A DNA stretch of 366 nt. It comes from Escherichia coli (GTDB taxonomy: Bacteria > Pseudomonadota > Gammaproteobacteria > Enterobacterales > Enterobacteriaceae). Position numbers and translations under genes: made by a program. How positions within the stretch are numbered: the first letter of the stretch is position 1; each line of letters opens with the position of its first letter. Location: assembly GCF_003334305.1 (NCBI RefSeq), contig NZ_QOWS01000082.1. The stretch is one strand, 5' to 3'. The notes below the pieces were generated by a model that worked only from the letters and a program-made list of their open reading frames with translations, had not been told where the DNA came from and made no database searches. This document shows positions 1 through 366 of the stretch, piece by piece.

Positions 1-62
1 AATTTGAGAGACTCACGAACAACTTTCGTTGTTCAGTGTTTCAATTTTCAGCTTGATCCAGA

Positions 63-75
63 TTTTTAAAGAGCA
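63..75 (-). promoter_or_regulatory. boxA-like antitermination motif of the rrn spacer (NusB/NusE binding-site type)
   Basis: Minus-strand sequence TGCTCTTTAAAAA (reverse complement of plus 63-75) differs at one position from the rrn leader boxA TGCTCTTTAACAA. It sits just downstream (in the transcript) of a hairpin, giving the boxB-then-boxA order typical of rrn and lambda nut antiterminators. Functional assignment rests on established knowledge of E. coli rrn operons. Confidence 0.7.
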
Positions 76-76
76 A

Positions 77-114
77 ATATCTCAAACATCACCCGAAGAT
101 GAGTTTTGAGATAT
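77..114 (-). promoter_or_regulatory. boxB-like RNA hairpin upstream of boxA in the spacer transcript
   Basis: Minus-strand RNA ATATCTCAAAACTCATC-UUCG-GGTGATGTTTGAGATAT folds into a 17-position stem capped by a UUCG tetraloop. It has one G-U wobble and a 2-nt internal mismatch (C-U, A-G), with 14 Watson-Crick pairs. Pairing was checked by hand. The boxB role is inferred from its position next to boxA. Confidence 0.5.
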
Positions 115-148
115 TAAGGCAGGTGACTTTCACTCACAAACCAGCAAG

Positions 149-224
149 TGGCGTCCCCTAGGGGATTCGAACCCCTGTTACCGCCGTGAAAGGGCGGTGT
201 CCTGGGCCTCTAGACGAAGGGGAC
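149..224 (-). tRNA. tRNA-Glu (anticodon UUC), complete 76 nt with encoded 3' CCA
   Basis: Reverse complement of 149-224 is GTCCCCTTCGTCTAGAGGCCCAGGACACCGCCCTTTCACGGCGGTAACAGGGGTTCGAATCCCCTAGGGGACGCCA. It has a 7-bp acceptor stem (GTCCCCT/AGGGGAC), anticodon loop CUUUCAC with anticodon UUC, T-arm GGTTCGAATCC and terminal CCA. This is identical to E. coli tRNA-Glu as I recall it. In E. coli the spacer copies are gltT/U/V/W; which copy this is cannot be determined from the window, so the symbol is left empty. Confidence 0.97.
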
Positions 225-309
225 GTATCAGTCTGCTTCGCAAGACGCCTTGCTTTTCACTTTCTATCAGACAATCTGTGTGAGCACTTCAAAGAACGCT
301 TCTTTAAGG
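225..309 (-). other. 16S-23S internal transcribed spacer, segment between the 16S 3' end and tRNA-Glu (85 nt)
   Basis: Lies between the mature 16S 3' end (310) and the tRNA 5' end (224) on the same strand. Minus-strand sequence begins CCTTAAAGAAGCGTTCTTTGAAGTGCTCACACAGATTGTCTGATAGAAAG..., which resembles enterobacterial spacer sequence as I recall it. Contains no ORF and is part of the pre-rRNA transcript. Confidence 0.9.
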
Positions 310-366
310 TAAGGAGGTGATCCAACCGCAGGTTCCCCTACGGTTACCTTGTTACGACTTCACCCC
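310..366 (-). rRNA. rrs: 16S ribosomal RNA, 3'-terminal 57 nt (partial; gene continues beyond the right edge of the window)
   Basis: Reverse complement of 310-366 reads GGGGTGAAGTCGTAACAAGGTAACCGTAGGGGAACCTGCGGTTGGATCACCTCCTTA, the canonical 3' end of bacterial 16S rRNA including the anti-Shine-Dalgarno CCUCC and terminal UUA. Match to the E. coli 16S terminus is from memory, not a database search. Confidence 0.96.

Follow-up and report, generated by a model that had tools for sequence, protein, structure and literature searches.

A tRNA-Glu(UUC) gene in the short form of the Glu-type rRNA operon spacer of Escherichia coli

Our analyses leave hardly any doubt that the window, i.e. the whole 366-nt stretch of DNA analysed here, is a minus-strand piece of a Glu-type rRNA operon of Escherichia coli (or Shigella) in its short spacer form, a reading that includes the processing proposed below for its transcript. 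The species is named on the basis of a sensitive comparison within the E. coli genome collection only, which does not separate E. coli from Shigella or from very close relatives within Escherichia. Everything in the window is already known, and its tRNA-Glu(UUC) gene is an ordinary textbook one.

Background

That the spacers of the E. coli rrn operons contain tRNA-Glu genes has been established since the late 1970s; the mature tRNA-Glu reads both GAA and GAG. The Glu-type operon has been defined in a study that counts seven rrn operons in E. coli, four of them of this type (PMC5179076), and the existence of two operon types, as well as the co-transcription and processing of the RNAs that they encode, are documented in several sources (PMC5179076, PMC10250234, PMC2943607). 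Leader and trailer of the 16S precursor form a helix, which is cleaved by RNase III and is essential for 30S biogenesis (PMC10250234). In addition, the spacer just upstream of 23S has been found to give rise to StyR-44, an RNA of ~109 nt reported in all seven operons, which in the opinion of its describers may still prove to be a metastable intermediate of rRNA maturation (PMC2943607).

Results

Location of the window and order of its features

Many E. coli chromosomes contain the whole window with 100% identity, and the features lying under it there are annotated as 16S ribosomal RNA and tRNA-Glu. The window was matched in all of the 5,426 complete E. coli genomes, at a median of 7 places per genome, and its best match was at least 99% identical in 4,611 of the 5,433 matching E. 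coli records. Read along the minus strand, the window comprises the 3' end of the 16S gene, a spacer of 85 nt, the tRNA-Glu gene and the first 148 nt of the spacer between tRNA and 23S (Table 1). The 16S gene is incomplete, extending past the window edge on its 5' side, and the part that is present includes the anti-Shine-Dalgarno motif CCUCC at 313-317. The 23S gene itself lies outside the window, and the placement of the window between 16S and 23S follows from the genomes carrying the identical 366 nt, which show the latter gene: the operon around the exact matches in ATCC 8739, AMSCJX02, 120899 and 204446 consists of 16S, tRNA-Glu, 23S and 5S, and the 23S start is found 193 nt past tRNA-Glu in every checked genome with the identical 366 nt, as it is in K-12.

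Table 1. Features of the 366-nt window, with strand and supporting evidence
Feature	Position	Strand	Evidence
16S rRNA, 3' terminal 57 nt	310..366	-	Rfam RF00177, model 1477-1533 of 1533, 56.9 bits, E = 9.1e-16, cut at 5' end
16S-to-tRNA spacer, short Glu form, 85 nt	225..309	-	Alignment to K-12 rrn operons and K-12 annotations
Trailer strand of pre-16S leader-trailer helix (RNase III substrate), predicted	263..298	-	Cofold with the leader of exact-match operons
tRNA-Glu(UUC) gene	149..224	-	ARAGORN, Rfam, fold, K-12 identity; anticodon 190-188, encoded CCA 151-149
tRNA-to-23S spacer, first 148 of 193 nt	1..148	-	Alignment to K-12 and exact-match operons
16-bp hairpin with UUCG tetraloop, boxB-like position, predicted	76..115	-	Minimum-energy and centroid folds of the spacer
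Spacer boxA, UGCUCUUUAAAAA	63..75	-	Core matches leader boxA
StyR-44 (RF01830), 5' two-thirds	1..71	-	Rfam model positions 1-71 of 107, 81.5 bits (gathering score 54), truncated at the window edge

Identity and fold of the tRNA-Glu gene

A first-pass annotation of the window, made from its letters, had placed a tRNA-Glu(UUC) gene there, and ARAGORN recovered that gene, with the anticodon ttc, as the single tRNA gene in the window, agreeing in isotype, anticodon and coordinates; the minus strand is the one that the annotation had implied by referring to the reverse complement. The anticodon UUC (positions 34-36) accordingly appears as 'gaa' on the plus strand. The tRNA model of Rfam (RF00005), run with Infernal, matched over its full length (1-71) at 152-224 on the minus strand, with E = 9.4e-13 and a score of 60.1 bits, the gathering score being 29, and its alignment flagged zero non-canonical pairs. 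The three bases of the gene that fall outside this match are the encoded CCA. At minimum energy, the 76-nt RNA folds into a cloverleaf (-32.8 kcal/mol, z = -2.49 versus shuffles), formed by a 7-bp acceptor stem, a 4-bp D stem, an anticodon stem and a 5-bp T stem, with the loop GTTCGAATC in the T arm. By its cloverleaf arms and its above-threshold score against RF00005, the gene belongs with the bacterial elongator tRNAs. The acceptor stem, described at first pass as rich in G-C, pairs GUCCCCU with AGGGGAC through five G-C pairs out of seven, and the CCA described as encoded in the genome is present at the 3' end, directly following the discriminator base G73.

The proposed match to E. coli tRNA-Glu was borne out by alignment, in which the gene proved identical to each of gltT, gltU, gltV and gltW of K-12 at 76 of 76 positions. 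An annotated tRNA-Glu with 100% identity to it occurs in 5,394 of the 5,426 complete E. coli genomes (21,632 places in total), and all but one of the 5,398 matching records (5,397) are likewise 100% identical over the annotated tRNA-Glu. The agreement of these lines of evidence is far beyond chance. The median of 4 tRNA-Glu copies per genome, set beside the median of 7 places for the window, corresponds to the familiar seven rrn operons with four of the Glu type, and it fits the two enterobacterial spacer types that the first-pass annotation had named and that are described in the literature (PMC5179076, PMC2943607). Other Rfam matches in the window were weak (SNORD24, ceN33, Plastid-psbl-rps4 and Tymo_tRNA-like, E = 0.19-0.59); they lie far under their gathering scores and were discarded as due to chance or as tRNA-like by construction.

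The exact positions of the features by which glutamyl-tRNA synthetase (GluRS) recognizes its tRNA are said to have been set out by Sekine et al. in 1996. The features are listed in PMC2777447, and the tRNA of the window carries them as the pairs G1-C72 and U2-A71, a 4-bp augmented D stem (U11-A24, U13-G22), a variable loop of 4 nt in which position 47 is absent, and U34, U35, C36 and A37.

Short and long forms of the Glu spacer

One tRNA-Glu, and neither tRNA-Ile nor tRNA-Ala, lies between the 16S end and the 23S start, which defines the Glu-type ('type A') spacer; the tRNA begins 85 nt past the 16S 3' end, so that the ITS-Glu operon type initially suggested for the window could be refined to its short form. 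When the window was aligned with rrnB, rrnC, rrnE and rrnG, the Glu operons of K-12 MG1655, the 16S-tRNA spacer was found to measure 85 nt in the window as in rrnC and rrnE, versus 171 nt, i.e. 86 more, in rrnB and rrnG.

The closest K-12 counterparts are gltV in rrnE (b4008) and gltU in rrnC (b3757), which share with the window the tRNA, the spacer length and the complete sequence of its 148 nt of tRNA-23S spacer, including the hairpin and boxA. At position 289, its single difference from rrnE, the window has A on the RNA strand where rrnE has C; between the window and rrnC there are two differing bases. The operons containing gltT (rrnB) and gltW (rrnG) also have an identical tRNA and share the first ~55 nt past 16S and most of the tRNA-23S spacer, but in addition to their longer 16S-tRNA spacer they show several substitutions just past the tRNA, and in rrnG the hairpin sequence upstream of boxA is unlike that of the window. 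The Ile/Ala-type operons rrnA, rrnD and rrnH are built in the same way and have the 16S end and the distal part of the spacer in common with the window, but carry tRNA-Ile and tRNA-Ala, whereas the window contains tRNA-Glu only. Beyond E. coli, the Glu spacer of Salmonella enterica is organised in the same way, with a tRNA-Glu annotated under the match, although it is only ~91-94% identical to the window and its match is split in two by an indel; this identifies the window as the E. coli form rather than that of Salmonella. An Enterobacter-derived record was 89% identical.

Across E. coli the two forms are unequally represented. A 52-nt probe for the short-form junction was found at 17,589 places, distributed over 5,367 genomes (median 3 each), and a probe for the long-form insertion at 4,007 places in 2,791 genomes (median 1), together accounting for 21,596 of the 21,632 tRNA-Glu places. 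The short form thus represents ~81% of the Glu spacers and is about four times commoner than the long one, and the K-12 arrangement of two short and two long Glu spacers is atypical. The two forms diverge at a point where the plus strand of the window carries a terminator-like hairpin, GCAAGACGCCTTGC, with a T-rich tail (240-253), antisense to the rrn transcript. As a terminator it was dismissed, one such site having been found where 0.3 were expected from shuffles, which is at chance level.

Neither is the form fixed to a locus. The identical 366 nt were found at the rrnC locus (yieP ... tRNA-Asp, tRNA-Trp, hdfR) in ATCC 8739 and AMSCJX02, and at the rrnG locus (clpB ... kgtP), which in K-12 holds the long form, in strains 120899 and 204446. 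The sequence is not unique to any one rrn locus.

The 16S trailer

The trailer of the 16S precursor was cofolded with leaders taken from the four operons with an identical window and from K-12, seven operons being compared. Nucleotides 12-47 of the trailer (window 298-263) are predicted to form with the leader a continuous duplex of 35 bp, with an energy of -54.2 kcal/mol. Position 289 of the window (1563 in 16S numbering), which reads A on the minus strand and C or U in the K-12 operons, is the single unpaired bulge of this predicted helix, and its duplex energy is equal for A, C and U, so that exchanging this base leaves the predicted pairing energy unaffected. Across the seven operons, the ~35 nt of leader that are complementary to the trailer do not vary, and the few leader differences all lie elsewhere. 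A compensatory change in the leader was considered for base 289 and discarded, the complementary leader being invariant and the base an unpaired bulge. On this model, base 289 is to be seen as a neutral bulge polymorphism.

Hairpin, boxA and StyR-44 in the tRNA-23S spacer

The tRNA-23S spacer as a whole folds with z = -3.79. We take its 16-bp hairpin to be the 'spacer boxB' of the antitermination signal; a spacer boxB-boxA signal of this kind was reportedly described by Berg, Squires and Squires in 1989. The hairpin stands directly upstream of boxA, the core of which is the same as in the leader, and both elements lie between the tRNA and 23S, which is the arrangement of a spacer boxB-boxA. 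The core, TGCTCTTTAA, occurred exactly twice in the one complete operon that was examined, against a chance expectation of 0.07: one copy is in the leader, 144-135 nt ahead of 16S, and the other is in the spacer, at the position equal to window 66-75. The former agrees with the leader boxA given at -147..-133 in PMC10250234. By analogy with the work on E. coli rrn operons presented there, NusB/NusE would presumably be loaded at the spacer boxA, so that the antitermination complex is renewed ahead of 23S.

The match to StyR-44, which begins within the spacer boxA, scores above the gathering threshold and thereby places window 1-71 in this Rfam family. The RNA is probably a processing intermediate.

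Occurrence of the spacer in public records

An exact scan for the 85-nt spacer, with N at two positions, in 100,044 species-representative genomes returned a single match, in an Oxalobacter metagenome contig, and left the E. coli representative itself unmatched; such a scan is therefore too strict to inform on species range. In the matching contig, JAHAYL010000010.1 (region 9267-13266; 'MAG: Oxalobacter sp. isolate MBin.057'), the 16S end, the spacer and ~2.7 kb of 23S are E. coli-identical, with no more than 1 difference in 200 nt. Over the final ~500 nt of 23S the similarity falls off sharply, leading into an unrelated 5S gene and flank, and this 9.5-kb flank had no match in any E. coli genome. 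The contig is an assembly chimera with its junction in 23S.

Conversely, in 32 of the 5,426 complete E. coli genomes BLAST found no match to the tRNA-Glu, and the number was still 32 at word size 11 and E <= 1e-3; these are probably genomes with collapsed or mis-assembled rrn operons. Among the records labelled 'plasmid', E. coli replicons of 4.8-4.9 Mb, i.e. of chromosome size, hold all 7 rrn places, and replicons of 0.66-1.0 Mb hold 1-4. Enterobacterial Glu spacers, with 89-99.7% identity, were also present in several short 'phage' records of 1.6-7 kb that lack annotation, among them one with a Staphylococcus phage label. Mislabelling or contamination by host DNA is the likely origin of these rrn-bearing 'plasmid' and 'phage' records. 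Since fragments of E. coli rrn operons contaminate public records or become part of chimeras in this way, a match to an rrn spacer alone is weak evidence of origin.

Discussion

Proposed expression and processing of the spacer tRNA

The genes represented in the window would be expressed as part of one long precursor, in which tRNA-Glu is co-transcribed with 16S, 23S and 5S from the upstream promoters P1 and P2. Past the tRNA, the Nus-factor antitermination complex would be formed again at the spacer boxA for the transcription of 23S. RNase III would cut the helix between leader and trailer, thereby releasing pre-16S, and RNase P would generate the 5' end of the tRNA at window position 224, while at the opposite end an endonuclease cleavage would be followed by exonuclease trimming, halting at the encoded CCA (position 149). 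The mature tRNA would then be charged with glutamate by GluRS and, judging from its identity to the K-12 tRNA, would carry mnm5s2U at position 34. For transcription, processing, Nus-factor action and charging alike, we infer these steps from work on E. coli K-12, where the sequence is identical.

Alternative explanations

Several other readings of the window, or of parts of it, were weighed against this one. The one that we consider possible, if on balance unlikely, concerns the supply of tRNA-Glu at least during starvation or in stationary phase: its transcription would be driven by a sigma-70 promoter lying within 16S instead of by P1/P2, on an RNA ('riRNA') that mostly ends near the spacer end, uncoupling the supply of tRNA-Glu from rRNA synthesis. 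Takada et al. (2016; PMC5179076) reported a promoter of this kind for each of the seven 16S genes, in a study that also describes an in vitro transcript of ~800 nt containing tRNA-Glu and ending near the spacer end, together with steady tRNA-Glu levels under starvation, and the spacer that it deals with is of the same type as that of the window. A transcript of this length ending near the spacer end would start upstream of the 16S part of the window; by our own reckoning, and not from a position given in the paper, the start would lie several hundred nt inside 16S, beyond the 57 nt that the window holds. Within the window, the promoter scan gave 0 promoter-like sites and the terminator scan gave none on the RNA-sense strand. 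The claim comes from a single paper, and a transcript of this kind would add to co-transcription from P1/P2 rather than replace it.

The two remaining alternatives bear on the nature of the sequence itself. It is highly improbable that the window derives from a record that is mis-assembled, chimeric or mislabelled, such as certain 'plasmid', 'phage' or metagenome entries, instead of a genuine chromosomal rrn operon of E. coli: such records do exist, as illustrated by the chimeric Oxalobacter contig and by the short unannotated 'phage' and 'plasmid' records with the spacer, but 38,002 of the 38,012 places that match the window in E. coli assemblies are chromosomal, and even in a record of that kind the sequence would still be the Glu spacer of an E. 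coli rrn operon, which leaves its biological reading unchanged. The idea that the tRNA-like sequence is a decayed, non-functional copy deserves practically no credence. Its complete identity to the functional K-12 genes, its full-length Rfam match with no non-canonical pair flagged and its near-invariance among the matching records all speak against a pseudogene, which, as far as sequence identity can tell, is already refuted. To our knowledge, the gltT/U/V/W family is the sole tRNA-Glu gene family in E. coli, and with no other such family in the genome, copies of the type found in the window must be functional. The window is best read as a genuine Glu-type rrn operon fragment of the short form, bearing an intact tRNA-Glu gene, and none of the evidence speaks against this reading.

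Operon copy and movement of the short spacer

A further expectation of the first-pass annotation, that the sequence would help to assign the operon copy, did not hold. Apart from the short form being present in a median of three copies per genome, the identical window stands at rrnC in two strains and at rrnG in two others, so that it is unable to name the copy from which it came. The placement at one locus or the other according to the strain also means that the spacer form is not tied to a particular operon. The means by which the short form moves between rrn loci is most likely gene conversion. Such conversion among the rrn operons of E. coli, in which the region of the spacer tRNA is also transferred, is documented in PMC8022953, where Harvey & Hill 1990 is cited for it. 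A tentative and rather doubtful extension of this explanation is that the conversion between rrn loci is biased and that the short Glu spacer is spreading across E. coli by this means, at the expense of the long form.

The usefulness for ITS-based typing, which had likewise been anticipated, was upheld in part. The species-level form can be recognized, as the distance to Salmonella indicates, and so can the spacer class, but the strain cannot, given how many E. coli records match the window at 99% identity or more.

Conclusions

Beyond a correct annotation, the importance of the window is very little, its sequence being identical to the reference. It does carry a caution for spacer typing: from a fragment of this kind the species-level form and the class (Glu, short) can be read, but not the strain or the operon copy, since each genome contains the sequence several times and its loci vary from strain to strain. 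If biased conversion between rrn loci were indeed at work, the pattern of short and long forms over the four Glu loci would constitute a readable record of recent intragenomic recombination, in which the arrangement of K-12, with two spacers of each form, would represent an unusual state.
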